Origin: an uncultured bacterium
GTDB lineage: Bacteria; Zixibacteria; MSB-5A5; JAABVY01; JAHJOQ01
Assembly (NCBI GenBank): GCA_965369655.1
Contig: CBDUQR010000001.1
Span: 128,001 to 192,000 of the forward strand
Length of the DNA: 64,000 nucleotides
Direction: 5' to 3'
Each line of letters opens with the position of its first letter. Within the stretch, counting starts at the first letter, position 1. Made by a program: the position numbers and the translations under genes. Below, in pieces: positions 11,191 through 64,000 of the stretch. Below the pieces are notes generated by a model that had not been told where the DNA came from, did no database searches, and saw only the letters and a program-made list of their open reading frames with translations.

Positions 11191-12993
11191 ATGAATAAGA
11201 GTAGTATCAAATACGGACTGATAGTGGCAGCGTCAGTATCCGCGCTGATTATCATAGCGCTGCTTCTGTCCGGCAGCGCACGAGCAGCAGAGATCACACC
11301 CCCCGAGACGTTTCAACTCACTATCGAACTCAATGACGAGCAGGGCACGATCGTTGTCGAATATGGCGACATGAGGAAACGGTATCGATTCCGTGCCGAC
11401 GAGGTCAGTATTGCAGAGGGTGCAGTGACGATCACGCCCGATTTCGCGTTCACCGTCGACGGCATCCTGGCTGACGGCATACTCTATCCGATAGAGAACC
11501 TCCGAGTCGACGAAATATACCATGAGAAAGAGTTGATCAGTGTTGTCCTCAAGCATCGCAAGCAGACAGCAGCGGCAAAACGCCGACAGATCAAGCGCAA
11601 CCGAGTCGCGGTCACAGGAAGGCTCGTCGTGGATCACGATGATTTCGTCAGAGGAGATATTATCTGTTTCGGAGGAAATATCGAGGTTCGAGGAGAGGTG
11701 AATCGGAATGTAGTGGCAATCTTCGGTGATGTCTTCATCGTGGATGAGGGCATTGTGCGAGGTAATGTCGTGGCCATTGACGGCAAAGTCAACATGCGCG
11801 GCGAGGCGTCGGTCTACGGCGAGATCGCCGCTCACAGAGGACTCAGGAAGAGTGGCGGGGTCCGCGTCAGATTCGACTCCGAGGGATGGGGACCGAAAGA
11901 ATCTGATCTGATCGCATCATACAATCGCGTCGATGGGCTGCTGCTCGGCGGAAGAGGAGCGCTCGCCGATCCGGACTCGCTGCTGCCGACAATCCATGCG
12001 AGCTTAGGTTATGCTTTCGAGTCTGAACGGATGCATTACGAAGTCGGCGTTCACCAGAAACTGTTCGACAAATACTCGTTCACAGCCGGCGGGAGTTTCT
12101 TCAGGCAGACATCGACCGACGACGGCTGGCTTTCGCCTAGAAGAGAAAACTCGCTTCTGGCGATTCTTGCCGCCGAAGATTTCCGTGACTATTATGAGGA
12201 AGAGGGTGGAAAGGCATACCTGACATTCTGCCCCGGATACTACAATGAAATCGGCATCGGCTACAGGTTCACCGACCTGAAATGGATGGATCATCATCCG
12301 CTCTTATGGTCGCTCTTCGGGTGGGAGAAAGAATTCCGTTCCAATTTCTCATCGATCCCAGCTGACAAGAGGCGTGATGCCGGCGATCAATTCGACTCAA
12401 AGCTCGGCGAATTGAGCGCTTGGTACACACTCGACACACGCGATGACGATGAAGAACCATATTCTGGATGGTGGGCGCACGTGGAATACCTGACCGCTGG
12501 CGACAGACTCAAGGGTGACATAGCCTATGACAGACTCACCGCCGAGATCAGACGTTACCAGCCGATCACACACCGTCAGAACATCAATGTCAGGGCGAAA
12601 TACGGCATCGCCGGCAGAGATGTGCCGTTGTTCAGACAGTTCTATCTCGGTGGCATGAGGACAATCCGCGGACTCGATCATAAGAGTCTGATCAAAGTGC
12701 ATGAGCATGTTGTAGCAGGCGACACCGTAACCGTGATAGAGGGCGAACAGATGATCCTCGGGAATCTCGAATATGTCATCAACTTCCCGAAGGCATCTTT
12801 TGAGACCTCGCTGCTGTTCGACGTCGGGAAGGTCGTATCGAGAAAAGATAATATATTCTCCGACGGAGATTTCCATTCATCGGTCGGGATACGGCTCGGC
12901 TTCGAGGATGGCTTCAGCCTCGAGGTAGCCAAATCGCTTGATGACTCTGACGAACCGGTGAAACTGTGGGTACTCTTTCAACAATCATTCTGA
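11191..12993 (+). CDS. Omp85/BamA-TamA family outer-membrane protein with N-terminal bactofilin-like beta-helix repeats
   Basis: Signal peptide; repeats VRGDIICFGGNIEVRGEVNRNVVAIFGDV; barrel motif FYLGGMRTIRG; C-terminal Phe. Confidence 0.8.
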   Translation: MNKSSIKYGLIVAASVSALIIIALLLSGSARAAEITPPETFQLTIELNDEQGTIVVEYGDMRKRYRFRADEVSIAEGAVTITPDFAFTVDGILADGILYPIENLRVDEIYHEKELISVVLKHRKQTAAAKRRQIKRNRVAVTGRLVVDHDDFVRGDIICFGGNIEVRGEVNRNVVAIFGDVFIVDEGIVRGNVVAIDGKVNMRGEASVYGEIAAHRGLRKSGGVRVRFDSEGWGPKESDLIASYNRVDGLLLGGRGALADPDSLLPTIHASLGYAFESERMHYEVGVHQKLFDKYSFTAGGSFFRQTSTDDGWLSPRRENSLLAILAAEDFRDYYEEEGGKAYLTFCPGYYNEIGIGYRFTDLKWMDHHPLLWSLFGWEKEFRSNFSSIPADKRRDAGDQFDSKLGELSAWYTLDTRDDDEEPYSGWWAHVEYLTAGDRLKGDIAYDRLTAEIRRYQPITHRQNINVRAKYGIAGRDVPLFRQFYLGGMRTIRGLDHKSLIKVHEHVVAGDTVTVIEGEQMILGNLEYVINFPKASFETSLLFDVGKVVSRKDNIFSDGDFHSSVGIRLGFEDGFSLEVAKSLDDSDEPVKLWVLFQQSF

Positions 12994-25609: not shown

Positions 25610-25661
25610 TTGTCGTCATCACGAGGAGCGACAGCGACGTGGTGATCTCAGTTCATGCAAT
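25610..25661 (-). repeat. Palindromic element A, single arm (inverted copy of 27636-27687)
   Basis: Reverse complement matches 27636-27687 at 50 of 52 nt. Confidence 0.9.
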
Positions 25662-25701
25662 AGATATCCACCCGACGCTACGCTCTGGGTGGGTTACCGG
25701 T

Positions 25702-27580: not shown

Positions 27581-27686
27581 TCGCCGTCATTGCGAGCGAC
27601 CGAAGGGAACGTGGCAATCTCATGTTGGGTATCACATTGCATGAACTGAGATCACCACGTCGCTTCCGCTCCTCGTGATGACGACA
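27581..27686 (+). repeat. Palindromic element A, full copy (~105 bp)
   Basis: GTCATTGCGAGCGACCGAAGGGAACGTGGCAATCTC...GAGATCACCACGTCGC..CTCGTGATGAC; near-identical copy at 56599-56703. Confidence 0.9.
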
Positions 27687-37880: not shown

Positions 37881-38106
37881 CGTCGTCATCCCGCGTCCCG
37901 CGGGACGCTGTGATCTCAATTCGTCATCCTGCACGCACATCGCGTTCGTCACCCCTGCGGAGGCAGGGGTCTAGGCAAGTTTTTCAAGTCCGTAACCTCT
38001 ACGCATTCTGAATCTGGTTCTGGATTCCTGCCTGCGCAGGAATGACGAGGACTGCTGGCTCGCATATGCGAGATTGCCGCGCTCCCTTCGGTCACTCGCA
38101 ATGACA
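37881..38106. repeat. Composite repeat: element B (37937-38050) between reversed arms of element A
   Basis: 38070-38106 is the reverse complement of the element A left arm; 37882-37918 is a degenerate second arm; element B lies between them. Confidence 0.75.
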
Positions 38107-38229
38107 GCGATTTGCGCTAGCTGCATGATATTCCGCCTTAGTGATTATTGTCAACATGCCTCATAGGTGTTATCATACTCAACATGTAAGCAGATAAGCA
38201 ATGAAGATTCAACTATTATTACACAAAGC

Positions 38230-54023: not shown

Positions 54024-54590
54024 TCAGTTGCCGTCATTGTCCCACGGCCAATCTCCGAAACGAAATCCCCGTGGAGCCTCGCCGAACATCATACAATCAT
54101 CGTTCATCATGCCCATGCCGATTCCATGTCCGCGTGGATGACGCCCGCCTTGTCCGCGGCCACCGAAGGGCATCGTTTCGAGTTTCGCCTTTTGCTCATC
54201 GGTAAGCATGTTGCGGAAAGCGAGTCGCTGATGCACATTGATCTTCTGGATATTGGTTCTGATCGCCGACATCTGATCGATCTTTTTGTCGATCTCGGCC
54301 TTGCCAGCGCCACTCCGCATCAGTTCATGCAGTTCGAGACGAGCAAGCTTAAGATCAGACTTGATCGGGATCAGTTTCTTCTGTGTCTCAAGGCGCATTG
54401 CCCTGGCCTGCTTGATCTGATCAGTTGTCAGCTCGAGCATTTCGATCATGCTCTTGCCCTGACTGAATCCTTTGTGGAAATTACCACCGCCAGGACCTCC
54501 GCGCCCCATGCCTCTCTGTGCATTTGCAGTGACACCTCCGAATACGAATAGCGTAATTACCAGAAGTGTCAGGATTCCTGTCTTTTTCAT
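54024..54590 (-). CDS. Spy/CpxP family periplasmic chaperone-like protein
   Basis: Signal peptide, Gly/Met-rich linkers, LELTTDQ and MLTDEQK (LTxxQ) motifs. Confidence 0.88.
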   Translation of the reverse strand: MKKTGILTLLVITLFVFGGVTANAQRGMGRGGPGGGNFHKGFSQGKSMIEMLELTTDQIKQARAMRLETQKKLIPIKSDLKLARLELHELMRSGAGKAEIDKKIDQMSAIRTNIQKINVHQRLAFRNMLTDEQKAKLETMPFGGRGQGGRHPRGHGIGMGMMNDDCMMFGEAPRGFRFGDWPWDNDGN

Positions 54591-54591
54591 T

Positions 54592-55296
54592 TCAGATACC
54601 TCCTTCAGGAGACTTGTAGCCTCCGATTTCGATTTTGTTACACTCTTGTCTTATTCTCTCTCTATGCAATCCGTCGCAGGGGAATTGGGTACTTGATCGA
54701 TTTCCGATATCGTATACGACGCACCCATGATCGGGTGGGAAATCAGGCACCATGCAGGGTGGCGAGTCGATGAAGCCGATCATGCCGATCGGCAGCCTCG
54801 GTCCTCTTCCGACGCCACGGTGTTTTCTCCAGTGACCTTGCTTTTCCCTGTACCTGCCGATCTGACCTTCCAGCATGCCGAGGAGTTTGCGCTTCTGACG
54901 TGGAGTGAGCATCTCCCCTTCACTCATTATGTATCCGATCGCATCTCTATGGAGTCGGTTCTGGACGTTTCCTATAGAATCGACCAGTCCGAATACCAGC
55001 GCAGTGTCGGGCGATTCAGCGTGCATGGCAGCGAAGAGGTTCGACTGGAGTCTGTGCAGATCATCAGCCAGATGTCGTGTGCCTTCAAAAAACTCTCTGC
55101 GGGAATCTCTCACATGTTGCATCTGCTCTTTATCGAGCCCGATCCTGTTGAAGAATCTCAATTCGCGCTCAGCCGGATCACCCGGAGGCATCGGGAGTCC
55201 GCCGTGTGACCATCTCATATAAGCGACTGTGGAAATCGCGGTCAGATTGAATATGGTCAGCAGAACGATGGCAAATATGAACAACTTCTTTTTCAT
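54592..55296 (-). CDS. Periplasmic heavy-metal-sensor/Spy-like protein
   Basis: N-terminal TM (LLTIFNLTAI), GLDKEQ and LTPRQK motifs; downstream of an anti-sigma factor. Confidence 0.8.
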   Translation of the reverse strand: MKKKLFIFAIVLLTIFNLTAISTVAYMRWSHGGLPMPPGDPAERELRFFNRIGLDKEQMQHVRDSRREFFEGTRHLADDLHRLQSNLFAAMHAESPDTALVFGLVDSIGNVQNRLHRDAIGYIMSEGEMLTPRQKRKLLGMLEGQIGRYREKQGHWRKHRGVGRGPRLPIGMIGFIDSPPCMVPDFPPDHGCVVYDIGNRSSTQFPCDGLHRERIRQECNKIEIGGYKSPEGGI

Positions 55297-55784
55297 GATT
55301 CGTCACCTCCTGCGGCATCGTTGCTTGCAGTCAGATCGAAGTAGAGATCGGCGAGTGAACCACCCGGAAGATCCTCGAAACTGTCGAGGCCATAGTCAAC
55401 GAGAAGGTCAGATGACTCGTCAACGGACTCACCGGCTGTGGCTGGGACTACAGCGAATTTGTATCCTGAAAAGACAGCCAGAAGAAGAGCCACAGCAATT
55501 GCCGCTGGCTGGAGCGTCGGGAAAATCCTCTTCCAGATCGGGTCCGGCGATTTTCCGACGATCTCGTCATCGAGCCGCGCTTCGAGTCTGGTCCGGAAGA
55601 ACGGCGATGGTTCGAGTTCCTCAATCTCATCGACACTCGTCCATATCGCCCTGAATTGCTCGACCAGCTCGCGGCAGGAAGCGCACGACTCGATGTGCTG
55701 CCTGATCCGCTCGGTCAACTCATCGTCCAATTGCTGTTCGATGAAGTCTACGAGCTTTTCCTCTATGAGCCTGCAATTTTTCAC
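55293..55784 (-). CDS. Zinc-binding (zf-HC2) anti-sigma factor
   Basis: HIESCASC motif, single TM helix; follows an ECF sigma gene. Confidence 0.9.
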   Translation of the reverse strand: MKNCRLIEEKLVDFIEQQLDDELTERIRQHIESCASCRELVEQFRAIWTSVDEIEELEPSPFFRTRLEARLDDEIVGKSPDPIWKRIFPTLQPAAIAVALLLAVFSGYKFAVVPATAGESVDESSDLLVDYGLDSFEDLPGGSLADLYFDLTASNDAAGGDES

Positions 55785-55841
55785 ATCAACCTCCGTCTAT
55801 CTCAGAGACACTTGCATTCGATAATACTTGCATGCTTTTTC

Positions 55842-56468
55842 TCACTTCCCGAGCTTCCTGACGAGCGATTTCCGAAGACGTAATTTCGCCCTGTGGATTC
55901 GGGATTCGACAGCCGAGAGCGATATTCCGAGGAATCGGGCGATCTCGACATAGGGCATGCCATCGAGCTTGTGCAGGGAAAACGGCTTCCCGAGTCTCTC
56001 CGGCAACTCGGCGATCGCGTCATAGAGAATCGCAGCGTTCCGCTCGATCTCGAAGCTCCTGTCCGGCCTGTCCGAGTCCCTGCCGGGGATCGATTCTTCG
56101 ATATTGCGGTCTGAATCGGAGGATTCCATCGGGATCAGACCTGGCTTTCTGTTGTCGCGAATATAATTGAGAGACTTGTAATGTGCGATTCGCAGTATCC
56201 ATGTCGAAAGCGATGATTCGCCCCTGAACTTGTGGATATTTCGATAGACCTCGACGAAGACGTCCTGAGCGATGTCCTCAGCGTCCATCTTGTTGCCTGT
56301 CAAGCGATAGCAGAGATTCAGTACTCGACGGGAGAGACGGTCAACAAGAGTGTTGAACGCAGCCTTGTCACCCGACCTGATCTTCTCGATCAGCTCCCAT
56401 TCGTCTAAACGCTTTTCTATCATAAGCCGGATAGACATTACTACAGATTCGACACGAATAAAAGGCAA
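55842..56468 (-). CDS. ECF RNA polymerase sigma factor
   Basis: DAEDIAQDVF, FRGESSLSTWILRI, YVEIARFLG, VESRIHRAK; true start may be ATG 56423. Confidence 0.93.
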   Translation of the reverse strand: MPFIRVESVVMSIRLMIEKRLDEWELIEKIRSGDKAAFNTLVDRLSRRVLNLCYRLTGNKMDAEDIAQDVFVEVYRNIHKFRGESSLSTWILRIAHYKSLNYIRDNRKPGLIPMESSDSDRNIEESIPGRDSDRPDRSFEIERNAAILYDAIAELPERLGKPFSLHKLDGMPYVEIARFLGISLSAVESRIHRAKLRLRKSLVRKLGK

Positions 56469-56598
56469 AACTTGCGGAAATCTCGACAGTCCCGTATATA
56501 AATAATGAAGCTCGTTCGCGGGCGTGATTCAATACCCAATGCGAGAGAGGTATGTTGAATAAGGTAGTTAGTATGGTATATAGAGTGGTCGTTGGAAT

Positions 56599-56703
56599 TC
56601 GCCGTCATTGCGAGCGACCGAAGGGAGCGTGGCAATCTCATATTGGGCATCATATTGCATGAACTGAGATCACCACGTCGCTTCACTCCTCGTGATGACG
56701 ACA
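56599..56703 (+). repeat. Palindromic element A, full copy
   Basis: Near-identical to 27581-27686. Confidence 0.9.
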
Positions 56704-56748
56704 GTTGGCTCTGTAGGTTTTTCAACAAGCCCTAAGAGGGAAGACATC

Positions 56749-57921
56749 ATGCGTATAACAGCATTTATCCTTCTGCAGATCATTTTCACCGTCATGGCTG
56801 CGGCGGGAACTTCAGCCACATTCGAGGAGTCAAAAGCGCTCTCAGCAAAGAGCGGGAAACCGATACTCTTGGAATTCGTGCGCGAGGACTGAGAGTATTG
56901 TGAACTCGCCGCTCGTGAAGCGGAAAGTGAAAAAGATGTCAGGAGTGCCCTAACATATGTTGTACATCAGCCTGTCAATGTTCTTGATGAAACAGGCTCA
57001 CTTCTGGCGGAAGAATACGATGTCGGTACAACATATCCTGTATTCATCCTGACTAATTCACAGGGTGAGATTATCACTCGCTGGACCGGGTACACCGGCG
57101 GAGCACAGGGATTCATCAGGAATCTGCTGAATGCTCTCAAAGATCAGCGGACAATAGCAGAGCGCGTTGAGCAATTCAAGGCTCAGCCGATACTGCTCGA
57201 AGCGGCCGCACTGGCAGGGTTTTTCGCCGAAATCGGCGAGCATCATAAGGCTGTCGAGTATTTCAGACAGGCTGAGTATCTCAGAACCGGATCAGGTGCG
57301 GGATTTTCGTACGACATTTTCAAAAACACAGCCAATGCCGTCTGGAACGAGAAGGCTGAGTATGAGACTGTCTTCCCTGTCGCTGACACTGCGTTGGTTC
57401 TGGGGAAGCGAAATGCTACAAATGTGATCGGTGTTGCAAGGATCATGAGCAGGATGTCGAGGAAATTCGAGCGGACCGACTCTCTGGAAAAATACTTACA
57501 GGTTGGAATCGCTGCCGCGAAAAGCAGTACCGATCCCAAGTTGAACAGATCGCAGTACAGCCTGAGCGCTGATATGGCGCTTCAGATCGACAGCGACACG
57601 GCGCAGGCAATAAGCACAAGAAAGCAGGGTATGGGAGCGAACTGGTCTGACAATCGCGACAAGGCGTTTTCGTTTGCTAAATGGTGTCTCGAGCGGAAGA
57701 TCAACCTTGACGAGTCGGAATCGATTGCGCGCAGGACTGTCAATCTTGTTCACCCAGGTGTGTACAGGGCAAGGGTATTGAGTACGCTTGCGCATATTCT
57801 TGACGCTCGCGGCAAGATCGACGAAGCCATTACGACAGTCGAGCAGGCGATTGAACAAAACCCCGATGATCCATACTATTCCAAACAGTTGAAACGCCTG
57901 AAAGGTGAGACAGATGAATAA
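56749..57921 (+). CDS. Exported thioredoxin-fold/TPR protein with in-frame TGA (probable selenocysteine, UEYC motif)
   Basis: Signal peptide, AKSGKPILLEFVRED-TGA-EYC; same frame runs without further stops into the 57394-57921 ORF; YPVFILTNSQGE cis-Pro strand; C-terminal TPR. Confidence 0.8.
56893..56928 (+). promoter_or_regulatory. Candidate bacterial SECIS hairpin
   Basis: CCGCT-CGTGA-AGCGG stem-loop (56909-56923); loop begins 21 nt after the UGA and has G in position 2. Confidence 0.5.
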
Positions 57922-58076
57922 TGGCCGAGCAGGTCGGTGACCCGACACGGACCAAACATCACGCAACTTTGTGCTTTTCTGTCCAGTATTACATATATTA
58001 TAGATACTGCTGCAAGTTTGCAGGCATGGTTCGTGTCTTGTATGTGGATTCGTGTAACCTGACGGAGGAGTACACA

Positions 58077-59333
58077 TTGAAGAAACCGATATACGCAGTC
58101 ATCGTAGTCGTTGTCATTCTGGTGGGATACTACGGGGTCAATGCCGTTTTCACGGTCTCGACAGAGATCCCGACCGCTCTCGTAACCAGGGGAGAATTCG
58201 TCATCTCGCAGTCTGCGAATGGAAGCGTCGACGCCAAGCGTGCCTACATCATCTCCACGCCACGAGCTCGCGGACTCCAGATCACCTGGCTCGCTCCCGA
58301 AGGATCGATGGTAAACGCGGGCGATCCGGTGGTCAAGTTCGATGCTACCCAGCAGTTGGCCGACCTTGCCGAGAATGAGTCGTCGCTGAAGATCGCCAAT
58401 ACGACGTTAGAGCGCGCCAACCGCGAGTATACTATTCAGGAGAAGCAGCTCAAGCTTGAGTTGAAGAAGGCTCAACGGAACTATGATGAGAAGAAGCATG
58501 AAGCTCCCAAGGTCGCGGAAGAAGCCAGGCTTGAACTTGAACTGGCTGAACTGAATTTCGACGCAAAACTCCAGCAGATCAAGGCGGATGTCGAGAAAGC
58601 CGAACTCCAGGTCCAGCGTGCGCAGGATCGGTTGAATCAGTCGCAGCGAGAAGTCGATCAGACGTCAATCAACGCTCCGATACCCGGTATGGTGGTCTAT
58701 CTCGAAATCTGGAAAGGTGGCACTATGAGCAAAGTCCAGGAAGGAGACTCTCCATGGCCCGGACAGGGGCTTGTCAATCTTCCCGACCTCTCGGAGATGA
58801 TCGTCGATGCCGCAGTGTCGGAAGTTGACGCAAGCATAATTGATTCCGGGCAGCATGTTGTCATCACACTCGACGCATTTCCCGATCAGATATACAGAGG
58901 CGTTGTCGACAAGAAAAGCATTCTTGCTCGACGCAAGGAGCCCGGCTCCAAAATCAATGTCTTCGATGTCGAAATCGACATACTCAATCATGACGAGAGC
59001 GTAAAGCCGGGCATGTCGGCCTCCTGCAAAGTGATTATCGATCGCATCCCTGATGTAATCCAGGTCCCGCTCGAAGCGGTTTTTCAGAAGGAGGGCGAAG
59101 TTGTCGTTTTCCTGAAGAACAATGAAATGCGAGCGGTGCAGGTCGGCAGACGCAACGATATGCTCGTCGAGATTCTGTCTGGCCTCGATGGCGGTGAGCG
59201 CGTATGCTTAGTCGATCCGACTCTCGAGGAGCTTCCCGGGGACAAAGCCACCGAGCCTGAACTGAACAAGGGAAGGCAACTCAACGGCCCCCCGAATAAG
59301 AGACCTCAGGGGGCCAAAGGACGCGGGAAGTAA
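58077..59333 (+). CDS. Efflux periplasmic adaptor subunit (MacA/HlyD family)
   Basis: N-terminal TM, APEGSMVNAGD, coiled coil, INAPIPGMV, KPGMSA; TTG start after GGAGGAG. Confidence 0.9.
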   Translation: MKKPIYAVIVVVVILVGYYGVNAVFTVSTEIPTALVTRGEFVISQSANGSVDAKRAYIISTPRARGLQITWLAPEGSMVNAGDPVVKFDATQQLADLAENESSLKIANTTLERANREYTIQEKQLKLELKKAQRNYDEKKHEAPKVAEEARLELELAELNFDAKLQQIKADVEKAELQVQRAQDRLNQSQREVDQTSINAPIPGMVVYLEIWKGGTMSKVQEGDSPWPGQGLVNLPDLSEMIVDAAVSEVDASIIDSGQHVVITLDAFPDQIYRGVVDKKSILARRKEPGSKINVFDVEIDILNHDESVKPGMSASCKVIIDRIPDVIQVPLEAVFQKEGEVVVFLKNNEMRAVQVGRRNDMLVEILSGLDGGERVCLVDPTLEELPGDKATEPELNKGRQLNGPPNKRPQGAKGRGK

Positions 59334-62300: not shown

Positions 62301-64000
62301 CTATTTCATTAGCACCATCTTTCTGGCGTCAGTGTAGTCGCCCGCCGATATCCTGTAGAAGTAGATGCCGGATGATACCGACTCGCCGCCATCGGTCGTG
62401 CCGTACCATGTGACACTGTGGTCTCCTGCCTGCAATACATCATCGATCAGTGTAGAAACACTCTGACCCATGATATTGTAGACCGTGAGAGTCGTTCGAG
62501 AGGTTTTCGGCAGACTAAAGCTGATCTCTGTCATTGGGTTGAATGGGTTAGGATAGTTCTGATTCAGCGTGAAGCTCGTCGGAATCATACCATCAGTAGT
62601 CTGCCTGTCGAACCGTGTTTCGAGCCTTCCTCCGCCCCTCGCGACGGCGATCGAATTGACAAGTTCCAACTTGCCGTCACCTTCGTATGAAATACTAACG
62701 ATGTCGATTCCACCTGCGGGGATCATATTCTGACCGTAGATGTCGATCAGGCCAACCTTGAACACGCCATTCTTCTCACCGAAGAAGACATCCACACCAT
62801 CGACAAGACTCCTTGCCTCCAGTCCGGAGACATCTCCAAAGATCGTGAATTCGAACTGCACAGCCTGGACCTCTCTGTCGGCATCCAGCGACAGCGTGAA
62901 CGAATCTCCGGCGTCGGTATTGTCAATCACTGCCACTGCGGCGCTGCCGACGATCATTTTGGTGGGGGCGGGACCACCGCTGCAGTTTTCCGGCGGTGGT
63001 CCACCGGCGAAGATGTAGTTGATCAGATAGACAGCATCATCGATATCGACCATGCCGGAGCAGTCAGCATCGCCAGCCTCGTAGGGAACCGGCGCCTGGC
63101 CGCCTGCGAAAATGTATTCTATCGAGAAGACGACATCGTCAATGTCTACATTTCCGCTTCCATCGGCATCGCCATCGACATAGCTTCCCTCGTAGTAGAG
63201 ATTCCAGACCGACTGAGTTATGACCGGAAGCGCACATGAAGAACTCTTACTGACAACTCGCGCCGGAGTTTTGCTGGTGGCTGTGACCGGAACGAGAGCG
63301 GGTGCACTTTCGAACAGGTCAAAACTAACTGGTGCGCCCCAATTGAGATCCCAGTCGATTTGCAAATTGCATAAAATGATCGATTCGCCTGGCAGCAAGA
63401 TACCGGGGTCGGGATTGTTACCGTACAGTTCATGCATGAACAAAATACAGTACCGTTTGAGATGATCCGGAGTCCCATTTGTTACCAAATGAATAGAAGT
63501 ATTGCAACCACCCGCTGACAGCTCATTATACCAAGTGTATGATATAGTTCCATGAGATGGCGTCACCTTTGGCAGCTCAATAGGGATCGTGACCATCCAG
63601 AGATACATGTCATCAGGACCGGTGTTAGTAAGACGAATAGTGTATGTGCTTGATCCAATGTTGTTAAGTACGACTTGAGCAGGCAGTGTGACCTGAAGAT
63701 CGGATTGACTGGATGGCCAAATCGGATTCTTGACTGTCAGTAGCGTGTTTTCGTTCCCATTGCTGAAATAGAGGGCAAACTGAAGCAAATCACCGAAAGT
63801 TGGCTGGCAAGGGAATGATGGGTTTTTATAGCCATCGTACTCCCAACTATAGTTGTTCCACGAGATGAACCCTGGATCACTTAACAAGCCGTTGGTCATG
63901 CACACGAGATCAGCAACAGTCAGCAGTATGTTGTCGTAGTTTGGGTCCCACTTATGACCGGTGTAGCCGGAGGGTGCGGGATCGGGATAAAGATTGGTCA
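62301..64000 (-). CDS. Large secreted modular protein with dockerin, cohesin-like and C-terminal FlgD-Ig/secretion-signal domains (5' end outside window)
   Basis: Two dockerin repeats (GDADGSGNVDIDD, GDADCSGMVDIDD), LNQNYPNPFNP..SSGIYFY..KMVLMK; frame is open to the window edge. Confidence 0.88.
   Translation of the reverse strand, partial: TNLYPDPAPSGYTGHKWDPNYDNILLTVADLVCMTNGLLSDPGFISWNNYSWEYDGYKNPSFPCQPTFGDLLQFALYFSNGNENTLLTVKNPIWPSSQSDLQVTLPAQVVLNNIGSSTYTIRLTNTGPDDMYLWMVTIPIELPKVTPSHGTISYTWYNELSAGGCNTSIHLVTNGTPDHLKRYCILFMHELYGNNPDPGILLPGESIILCNLQIDWDLNWGAPVSFDLFESAPALVPVTATSKTPARVVSKSSSCALPVITQSVWNLYYEGSYVDGDADGSGNVDIDDVVFSIEYIFAGGQAPVPYEAGDADCSGMVDIDDAVYLINYIFAGGPPPENCSGGPAPTKMIVGSAAVAVIDNTDAGDSFTLSLDADREVQAVQFEFTIFGDVSGLEARSLVDGVDVFFGEKNGVFKVGLIDIYGQNMIPAGGIDIVSISYEGDGKLELVNSIAVARGGGRLETRFDRQTTDGMIPTSFTLNQNYPNPFNPMTEISFSLPKTSRTTLTVYNIMGQSVSTLIDDVLQAGDHSVTWYGTTDGGESVSSGIYFYRISAGDYTDARKMVLMK

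Follow-up and report, generated by a model that had tools for sequence, protein, structure and literature searches.

We analysed a gene at positions 56749-57921 of the plus strand in a 64,000-nucleotide stretch of DNA from an uncultured bacterium of the phylum Zixibacteria. This whole stretch, here called the window, corresponded to C1:128001-192000 of genome G000, which had 2.99 Mb in 100 contigs and was 99.5% complete. The gene very probably encodes one selenoprotein of 390 residues, an exported thioredoxin-tetratricopeptide repeat (TPR) redox protein with an in-frame UGA that is served by a selenocysteine insertion sequence (SECIS). The comparative evidence from homologues showed codon 48, the UGA, to be a selenocysteine (Sec) codon. 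The features of the gene were as follows.

56734..56743, plus strand: Shine-Dalgarno-like sequence AAGAGGGAAG, read from the sequence, whose GAGG ends 9 nt before the ATG; its function is presumed.
56749..57921, plus strand: whole coding sequence of the predicted selenoprotein, 390 codons plus TAA (57919-57921), with one in-frame TGA; Cys homologues of 388-393 residues align with it end to end.
56890..56892, plus strand: predicted selenocysteine codon UGA, residue 48, based on the homologue alignment at this codon, with the TGA covered in two sequencing runs.
56909..56923, plus strand: putative SECIS hairpin CCGCU-CGUGA-AGCGG, with a stem of 5 bp (56909-56913/56919-56923) and the loop CGUGA (56914-56918).

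In the plain list of open reading frames (ORFs), the gene was represented by a 66-residue ORF (56692-56892) and by an ORF at 57394-57921, both in the same frame. An earlier note on this DNA had claimed that the two are one frame split by a single TGA, and this was confirmed. When TGA was translated as U, the frame 56749-57921 gave 390 residues with exactly one internal stop, the TGA at codon 48, and no further stop or frameshift was present across the 390 codons. The context of the codon was ...KSGKPILLEFVRED-U-EYC.... The read-through product started with M-R and a hydrophobic run, continued with ...GKPILLEFVRED-U-EYC... and T-Y-P-V-F, and ended in a long helical part. No in-frame ATG, GTG, or TTG was found between 56893 and 57394, which left 501 nt after the TGA without a start. 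The TGA was covered by contigs of two DNA runs from a marine sediment metagenome with zero differences, and one of these runs may be the source of the assembly. No RNA run holding the stretch was listed; there were only three DNA runs from a single study.

When 285 genomes of the phylum were searched in six frames, 95 proved to contain the gene, and most matches carried one internal TGA. In the case of matches with two TGAs, these were the Sec codon and a TGA stop codon. The analysis covered 116 homologous stretches, with two C-terminal fragments left out because they cannot cover codon 48. The codon aligned to residue 48 was TGA in 76 stretches, TGC in 30, TGT in 8, and GCC in 1, and one TAA-broken copy was unscored. 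The claim that the TGA sits at the first Cys of a thioredoxin CxxC was thus upheld, as TGC or TGT stood there in 38 of the 116 stretches. Counted by genome, 59 of the 95 had TGA forms only, 5 had both forms, and 31 had Cys forms only, so that 64 held a TGA form. As kin, the stretches do not count as independent, although the protein identity between the forms ranges over 29-52%. Since homologues form Sec/Cys pairs at the same codon, both a private mutation and a sequencing error were excluded as the origin of the TGA. In addition, the part strictly downstream of the TGA was under strongly purifying selection. The ratio of nonsynonymous to synonymous changes (dN/dS, Nei-Gojobori) was 0.035-0.19 in 15 close pairs of TGA forms, while a sixteenth, distant pair was saturated.

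The hairpin described in the earlier note was found where it had been placed, and its reading as a SECIS gained support from the homologues. The loop begins 21 nt past the UGA, and its second base is G. In the register used here, the stem bases are 20-24 and 30-34, numbered from the U of the UGA. Of the 76 TGA forms, 72 formed all 5 pairs and the remaining 4 lacked one pair; all 5 pairs were formed in only 3 of the 38 Cys forms. A recurrence of the TGA and its hairpin on this scale is far outside what chance would give. Spacing and register were identical in all 76 TGA forms. The stem occurred in seventeen variants, including changes from C-G to U-A, U-A to C-G, U-A to A-U, and G-C to A-U. In the alignment of the 76 sequences, 98.9% of the cells were paired, and 21 cells, at 4 of 5 pairs, showed two-sided, compensatory changes. 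The observed values were not reached in any of 500 shuffles, and controls with slid partners paired in 25-48% of the cells. RNAalifold recovered the same helix unaided.

The codons within the hairpin gave a further comparison. The hairpin spans the codons of A-A-R-E-A, and the third-position entropy there was 0.10-0.66 bits in TGA forms versus 1.6-2.0 bits in Cys forms. For the same Ala, the Cys forms used all four codons and the TGA forms essentially one. This meant that the constraint acts on the RNA and only where the TGA exists.

We compared the hairpin with the model of the bacterial SECIS (bSECIS) as given in a review (PMC13188914). The model has a loop of 3-9 nt, an upper stem of 4-16 bp, and an apical loop that lies 16-37 nt from the UGA. 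One of the first two loop bases is a G, mostly with a G or U after it, and the minimum free energy (MFE) is ≤ -7.5 kcal/mol. The window hairpin, with a loop of 5 nt, a stem of 5 bp, the loop start C-G-U, and a spacing of 21 nt, agreed with the model in each of these features. Loop position 2 was G in 76 of 76 TGA forms, and the next base was U in 70 and G in 6. The MFE of the UGA plus 57 nt was -12.6 kcal/mol. Since an MFE of ≤ -7.5 was reached by 32 of the 38 Cys forms as well as by 72 of the 76 TGA forms, this criterion did not discriminate between them. The MFE fold held the 5 pairs in 52 of 76 TGA forms versus 2 of 38 Cys forms. Overall, the view that the hairpin behaves as a SECIS was supported by these sequence comparisons.

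The genome carried the machinery for Sec. On contig 17, tRNA-Sec (anticodon UCA), selA (424 bits), and selB (329 bits, cut-off 242) were consecutive on one strand, and an intact selD (402 bits) was located on contig 13. selA was found in 271 of the 285 genomes of the phylum. Because SelA is near-universal in the phylum, its co-occurrence with the gene cannot discriminate. TGA is otherwise the commonest stop of the genome, closing 660 of 1438 frames of ≥ 300 codons. A second selenoprotein, of a known family, was also present. It was a peroxiredoxin (..FV-U-PTE) with a SECIS whose GGUC loop lies 17 nt after the UGA. When other selenoprotein families were sought in G000, neither FdhA nor CMD had a TGA form, and SelW/Rdx gave no match. 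A crude scan of the genome for a TGA followed by a hairpin yielded 420 candidates, which were mostly noise and do not represent a selenoproteome.

Two side observations were made on these genes. The selD gene was fused to an N-terminal class-V aminotransferase (NifS/cysteine-desulfurase-like) domain in one 751-residue frame (L003:1399-3654, minus strand, in C13 of G000), which would combine selenophosphate synthetase with a selenocysteine-lyase-like domain in one protein. The peroxiredoxin selenoprotein was present in two identical copies 1083 nt apart (G000 C33:10346-10744 and 11429-11827, minus strand).

The family was split into two branches. The window gene falls in the one with D-U-E-[YF]-C, and the other is a paralogue with W-U-G-x-C-K. 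The paralogue formed a well-supported clade of 23 rows and was usually a second copy in the same genome. Its hairpin was UCGCU-CGUG[A/C]-[A/G]GCGA, and the UGA and the hairpin were homologous across both paralogues. The Cys forms of the paralogue read W-C-G-P-C-K, the classical thioredoxin motif. The best NCBIfam matches of this branch were thioredoxin, a protein disulfide isomerase domain, and DsbD positions 460-561, all under the cut-off.

A maximum-likelihood tree of 108 near-full-length homologues required at least 14 changes between Sec and Cys, at least 5 of which were forced by well-supported branches. A tree grouping all 36 Cys forms was rejected, with a log-likelihood 851 lower and an approximately unbiased (AU) test p of 7e-46; the trait had defined the group, but the test followed inspection of the tree. 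Some Cys forms retained the full hairpin, such as one that stands beside a TGA sister (branch lengths 0.13 and 0.07). Sec and Cys have been exchanged many times within the family. Sec may be old in the family and repeatedly replaced by Cys, a direction that we infer on an unrooted tree.

Some further copies and relatives were observed. The paralogous branch comprised the loci L085, L091, L096, L098-L105, L108-L115, and L121, from genomes of two families of the phylum. One genome, G261, held a TGA form, a copy with Ala (GCC), and the TAA-broken copy (L104, L111, L118), and these are possibly decaying paralogues. G000 itself also encoded a 286-residue exported Cys-type thioredoxin plus TPR protein (L125:1402-2262, plus strand, in C61). 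It had the same layout and was a distant relative of the selenoprotein. The hhalign match, with a probability of 98% and 20% identity over 147 columns, extended across the signal peptide, the thioredoxin domain, and the linker. No fused longer forms of the family were found, which is weak evidence. Only 2 short stand-alone relatives of the thioredoxin part were found, one of which was the window's own stub.

The predicted protein was divided into the following parts.

56749..56817, plus strand: probable Sec-type signal peptide (the export route), residues 1 to about 20-23, with M-R, a hydrophobic run, and an AAAG/TSA-like end.
56812..57135, plus strand: thioredoxin-fold domain, residues 22-129, from Pfam and family-profile matches.
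56890..56901, plus strand: putative redox motif U-E-Y-C, residues 48-51, from the conservation of Cys51 and the alignment to CxxC proteins.
57037..57039, plus strand: Pro97 of T-Y-P-V-F, found in all 115 homologues covering the position; it is presumed to be the cis-proline of the thioredoxin fold, with the cis conformation likewise presumed.
57151..57918, plus strand: C-terminal helical, TPR-type domain, residues about 135-390, from Pfam TPR and profile matches.
About 57205-57300, plus strand: TPR motif, residues about 153-184, from the profile of residues 130-335.
57685..57687, plus strand: Cys313, within a W-C of the helical domain that 107 of the 109 homologues covering it retain.
57769-57870, plus strand: TPR motif, residues 341-374, from Pfam TPR_1/2/8.

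The earlier note had proposed a thioredoxin plus TPR architecture, and both parts were recovered. Pfam Thioredoxin_2 (PF13098) matched residues 33-116 with 28.5 bits (cut-off 27), and Thioredoxin_7 (PF13899) gave 23.9 bits, under its cut-off of 27. Among family members, Thioredoxin_2 was matched by 38 of 38 and Thioredoxin_7 by 37 of 38 at E ≤ 0.01. Over residues 22-129, the family profile matched 2kuc (1.4e-9), 2lst, and the DsbD C-terminal domain (5e-8), and the best matches had E values from 1.4e-9 to 6e-8. U-E-Y-C aligned with the CxxC of the DsbD C-terminal domain, DsbC, and thioredoxin-like chains. Cys51 was conserved in 115 of 115 homologues. Pro97 lies in the 'YP strand' TTYPVFIL, and Trp112 was kept in 114 of 115 homologues covering the position. 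Residues 49-130 were well conserved across the aligned full-length family, with G83, P97, R111, and G114 invariant. The U/C-x-x-C at the start of helix 1 and the cis-Pro loop would accordingly be placed as in the thioredoxin fold. In the case of the C-terminal part, the profile of residues 130-335 matched consensus TPR proteins (E 3e-26), and the best stretch was profile positions 24-55. Because the motifs at about 153-184 and 341-374 occur together, the C-terminal part was assigned as a TPR-type solenoid. The window protein has Cys or Sec at positions 48, 51, and 313 only.

The earlier note had also described an envelope-localised selenoenzyme. The reading as a selenoprotein gene was supported by the comparative evidence, and the location is predicted from the N-terminal segment. 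This segment had a hydrophobic 10-mer (Kyte-Doolittle ≥ 2.19, median 3.06) and an A-x-A-like end in 112 of 112 homologues, by a heuristic and not by a signal-peptide predictor. The 390-residue product is probably exported via this signal peptide and localised in the envelope.

A mechanism can be proposed from these parts. SelB of the genome would bind the hairpin within the coding sequence and deliver Sec-tRNA(Sec), which would be made by SelA with selenophosphate from SelD. The product would then be exported to the periplasm via the N-terminal signal peptide. Sec48 would be the attacking and Cys51 the resolving residue of a U-x-x-C thiol/selenol-disulfide exchange, and the roughly 250-residue TPR-type helical domain would hold a client protein or a partner. 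The protein might act in the reducing direction, as a reductase or a protector of oxidised envelope proteins, and the membrane protein DsbD might recharge it. A DsbD of 591 residues was encoded in the genome (DsbD_TM 190 bits, plus Thioredoxin_7). The chances that the protein works in the reducing direction and is recharged by DsbD seemed about even. From the sequence, a reasoned guess would be a periplasmic reductase or protector that is fed by DsbD and has a domain for binding clients.

Several points weighed against this account of the gene and its product. Three genomes with a TGA form had no SelA match (G198, G031, and G148, which were 79, 92, and 93% complete). The Pfam scores of the window protein were marginal for both thioredoxin families. 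The short hairpin alone folded at -7.0 kcal/mol, just short of the threshold of -7.5, and the threshold was reached only with flanking pairs, which were themselves not conserved. No gene neighbours were conserved at 29 other loci, and no partner or pathway was indicated by them. In addition, the reducing direction, DsbD as the donor, the binding of clients by the TPR part, and a role of Cys313 are points that we infer.

The surroundings of the gene in the window were as follows.

54024-54590 and 54592-55296, minus strand: two 'Metal_resist' (Spy/CpxP-like) periplasmic proteins, in the divergent set 54024-56468.
55293-55784, minus strand: zf-HC2 anti-sigma factor, in the divergent set 54024-56468.
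55842-56468, minus strand: extracytoplasmic function (ECF) sigma factor, divergent from the selenoprotein gene.
57921/58078-62145, plus strand: HlyD-type adaptor, MacB-like permease, and TolC-like outer-membrane protein in a row, downstream of the selenoprotein gene.
62301-63905, minus strand: large protein with FlgD-Ig and Por_Secre_tail domain matches (type-IX-secretion sorting signal).

The divergent set of four genes looks like an envelope-stress module. As the neighbourhood did not recur at the other loci, it was given no weight. The adaptor probably starts at the TTG at 58078 behind GGAGGAG and not at the ATG at 57921, which overlaps the stop codon of the selenoprotein gene. The comparison of neighbours was made by scanning 80 flanking ORFs of ≥ 150 residues, of 168 ORFs of ≥ 100 residues. 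A scan for promoters and terminators found no sigma-70-like promoter and gave terminator-like sites on the minus strand only. There was no Rfam match within 56400-58200. Just upstream of the gene, at about 56553-56713, a dispersed intergenic repeat was observed, which also occurred at about 25611-25662, 27581-27686, and 38070-38113. A 209-nt query (56540-56748) gave 80 blastn matches (E ≤ 1e-3) on at least 30 contigs of the genome, and the repeat looks REP-like (repetitive extragenic palindromic) or MITE-like (miniature inverted-repeat transposable element).

The earlier note had called the protein invisible to standard gene calling, and the public records bore this out. In them, these genes are split into a stub of 47 residues and a 'TPR protein' of about 318. 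The window's own 47-residue stub is recorded as a protein in its own right, and the N-truncated 'TPR' or 'hypothetical' proteins have about 305-326 residues. A protein search gave 98 relatives. Of these, 37 were aligned with the window protein and had Cys at position 48 in >90%, with the consensus D-C-E-Y-C; most were full length (about 388-393 residues) and had thioredoxin Pfam matches. The other roughly 60 relatives were 283-335 residues long, with about 64-84% query coverage, and had no thioredoxin matches. The source, where named, was 'candidate division Zixibacteria', and the products were 'hypothetical' or 'tetratricopeptide repeat protein'. One full-length homologue, the public protein P0030 (source ENA), had W at the Sec position followed by E-Y-C, which suggests that its source translated the TGA as Trp.

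Pattern scans of 185,579 species genomes, which see close relatives only, found only Zixibacteria-type metagenome-assembled genomes (MAGs). In the species-genome scan, an alignment of 8 sequences gave 18 loci and a single-protein query gave none. Some of these MAGs were labelled Ignavibacteria or FCB group, but their contigs were identical with those from the phylum search. When 1.84 billion representatives were searched with a profile, 306 clusters had E ≤ 1e-30. Among the best 150 of these, about 67 by hand count started at profile positions 43-167 and were N-truncated calls. The family seems to be confined to Zixibacteria, judging from these searches.

The literature was also searched for the family. 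The review cited above (PMC13188914), from 2026, describes itself as the most comprehensive inventory and counts 119 prokaryotic selenoprotein (sub)families. Neither 'tetratricopeptide' nor 'Zixibacteria' occurs in its text. The text of the BSepDB paper did not contain TPR, tetratricopeptide, or Zixibacter. In the full-text literature on Zixibacteria and selenoproteins, or on TPR or thioredoxin-like selenoproteins, the family was not found; supplementary tables of recent surveys may list it. The sole full-text paper that paired Zixibacteria with selenoprotein merely tabulated a Zixibacteria MAG. No NCBIfam model was above its cut-off for either branch. As far as checked, the thioredoxin plus TPR architecture is missing from the selenoprotein inventory and the NCBIfam models.

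The kind of protein is familiar, as most bacterial selenoproteins are thioredoxin-like with U-x-x-C or C-x-x-U. The family is a new variant of the thioredoxin-fold U-x-x-C type, the commonest kind of bacterial selenoprotein. It is distinguished by its export, its large TPR domain, its third conserved Cys, its restriction to a single candidate phylum, and its systematic mis-annotation. Where public records exist for TGA forms, they are truncated proteins without the catalytic domain. The 76 Sec forms and 38 Cys forms, with several apparently recent switches, make a clean natural data set, which could be used to study the minimal needs of a bacterial SECIS and the reasons why Sec is kept or replaced.

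Four other explanations of the TGA and its gene were considered. The one that survived best keeps the selenoprotein but gives it other chemistry, and we regard it as possible though unlikely. The protein would then be a periplasmic oxidase or isomerase (DsbA/DsbC-like), would react with peroxides or sulfenic acids, or would bind a metal or metalloid via Sec48, Cys51, and Cys313. The third conserved Cys is available for this, the E-Y in U-E-Y-C differs from the G-P of thioredoxin, and DsbC was among the profile matches. The neighbours in the window, the ECF sigma, anti-sigma, and two 'Metal_resist' (Spy-like) genes together with a MacAB-TolC-type efflux set, also fit such a role. However, these neighbours were not conserved at the 29 other loci. 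The paralogous branch, with W-U/C-G-[SP]-C-K, has a reductase-type motif, and the best profile matches were the DsbD C-terminal domain and thioredoxin, not DsbA.

Reading of the UGA without selenium was judged very improbable. In this explanation, a near-cognate tRNA (Trp, Cys, or Arg), a reassigned TGA, or a SelB-dependent tRNA carrying Cys would decode the codon. SelB-dependent tRNAs that carry Cys instead of Sec have been described in some bacteria, the inserted residue is not readable from sequence alone, and the translation of P0030 has W at the position. However, TGA is not reassigned, as it serves as a stop in nearly half of the long frames and at the end of some homologues of the same gene. 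The aligned residue in homologues without TGA was Cys (38) or Ala (1), and never Trp or Gly. In addition, selA and selD, which are needed only for Sec (and selenouridine), were intact, and plain read-through needs no conserved hairpin of the SelB type.

The remaining two explanations have next to no probability. A pseudogene, a private nonsense mutation, or a sequencing or assembly error, with the TGA ending a dead or mis-assembled gene, would account for the 47-residue stub and the truncated downstream product given by gene callers, but the TGA recurs at the same codon in 76 of 116 stretches and 64 of 95 genomes, the downstream selection is purifying, the 390 codons are otherwise intact, the contigs of two runs (one possibly the source sample) agree, and homologues with 29-52% protein identity are not assembly copies of one sequence. 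Two products, a secreted peptide of 47 residues ending at the TGA and an independent downstream TPR protein, would match the public annotation of the locus, but the TGA lies in the middle of the thioredoxin fold with the cis-Pro strand and the remaining strands downstream, the window offers no in-frame start for 501 nt, the Cys forms are single proteins of 388-393 residues, and the conserved residues 49-130 would be lost with a downstream start.

The 'Thiol:disulfide interchange protein' selenoprotein family (PF13098, UxxC) is listed in Table 1 of PMC13188914 and was reported from a few Deltaproteobacteria (PMC1794560). Compared by description, it shares with the window protein the Thioredoxin_2 domain, a U-x-x-C with Sec first, and a bacterial SECIS within the gene; the likeness is one of Pfam family and motif only. 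The window protein differs from this family in its additional TPR-type part of about 250 residues and its third conserved Cys. In the searches made here it came up in no phylum but Zixibacteria, and its match to PF13098 was just above the cut-off.

The best profile matches were DsbD-gamma and small periplasmic thioredoxin-like proteins (PDB 2fwe, 1uc7, 2kuc, 2lst), which match residues 22-129 with the CxxC at the same position. A periplasmic location would be common to these proteins and the window protein. However, all scores were under the family cut-offs, and none of these proteins has a TPR domain. DsbD-gamma also differs in being tethered to a membrane domain and in having Cys, not Sec.

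Among selenoproteins, the Trx7/PDZ selenoprotein (NF041199) is similar in joining a Thioredoxin_7-like selenoprotein to a protein-binding domain. It differs in having CxxU and a PDZ partner, where the window protein has UxxC and a TPR partner, and its scores of 12 to 12.8 bits were far under the cut-off of 300. The model NF041046 (UGSC-containing protein) was not listed for the window protein or for two W-U-G-x-C paralogues. The peroxiredoxin selenoprotein of G000 uses the same Sec machinery and a small hairpin with G-U in the loop. Unlike the window protein, it is an AhpC-TSA protein of a known selenoprotein family, with T-x-x-U, the GGUC loop, and a longer stem, which has 12 pairs in its MFE fold.

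The chaperedoxin CnoX/YbbN offered a working model. According to PMC8129009, CnoX binds unfolded clients with its TPR part and forms mixed disulfides with them through its thioredoxin part. Like the window protein, CnoX has an N-terminal thioredoxin fold followed by a C-terminal TPR domain. However, CnoX is described as cytoplasmic and as passing clients to GroEL/ES, whereas the window protein has a signal-peptide-like N-terminus by the heuristic given above. The active site also differs, being U-x-x-C in the window protein and S-x-x-C or C-x-x-C in CnoX. The window protein had no TPR_20 match, and the TPR_20 match of G000 lies elsewhere. No CnoX/YbbN chain was among the PDB matches (best 60 of 104, 14 of 14, and best 60 of 63). 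The likeness to CnoX is one of architecture, with no apparent homology beyond two generic folds, and membership in CnoX fails on location and on sequence relationship. By analogy, it is conceivable, though improbable, that the family is a periplasmic, selenium-dependent counterpart of CnoX. The TPR domain would hold envelope proteins that are unfolded or oxidised, and Sec48-Cys51 together with Cys313, as a third redox residue, would reduce or shield their cysteines with electrons from DsbD. If true, it would be the first selenoprotein holdase-reductase, and an entire uncultured phylum would have a trait that has depended on Sec since ancient times, hidden by an annotation that splits every Sec form.

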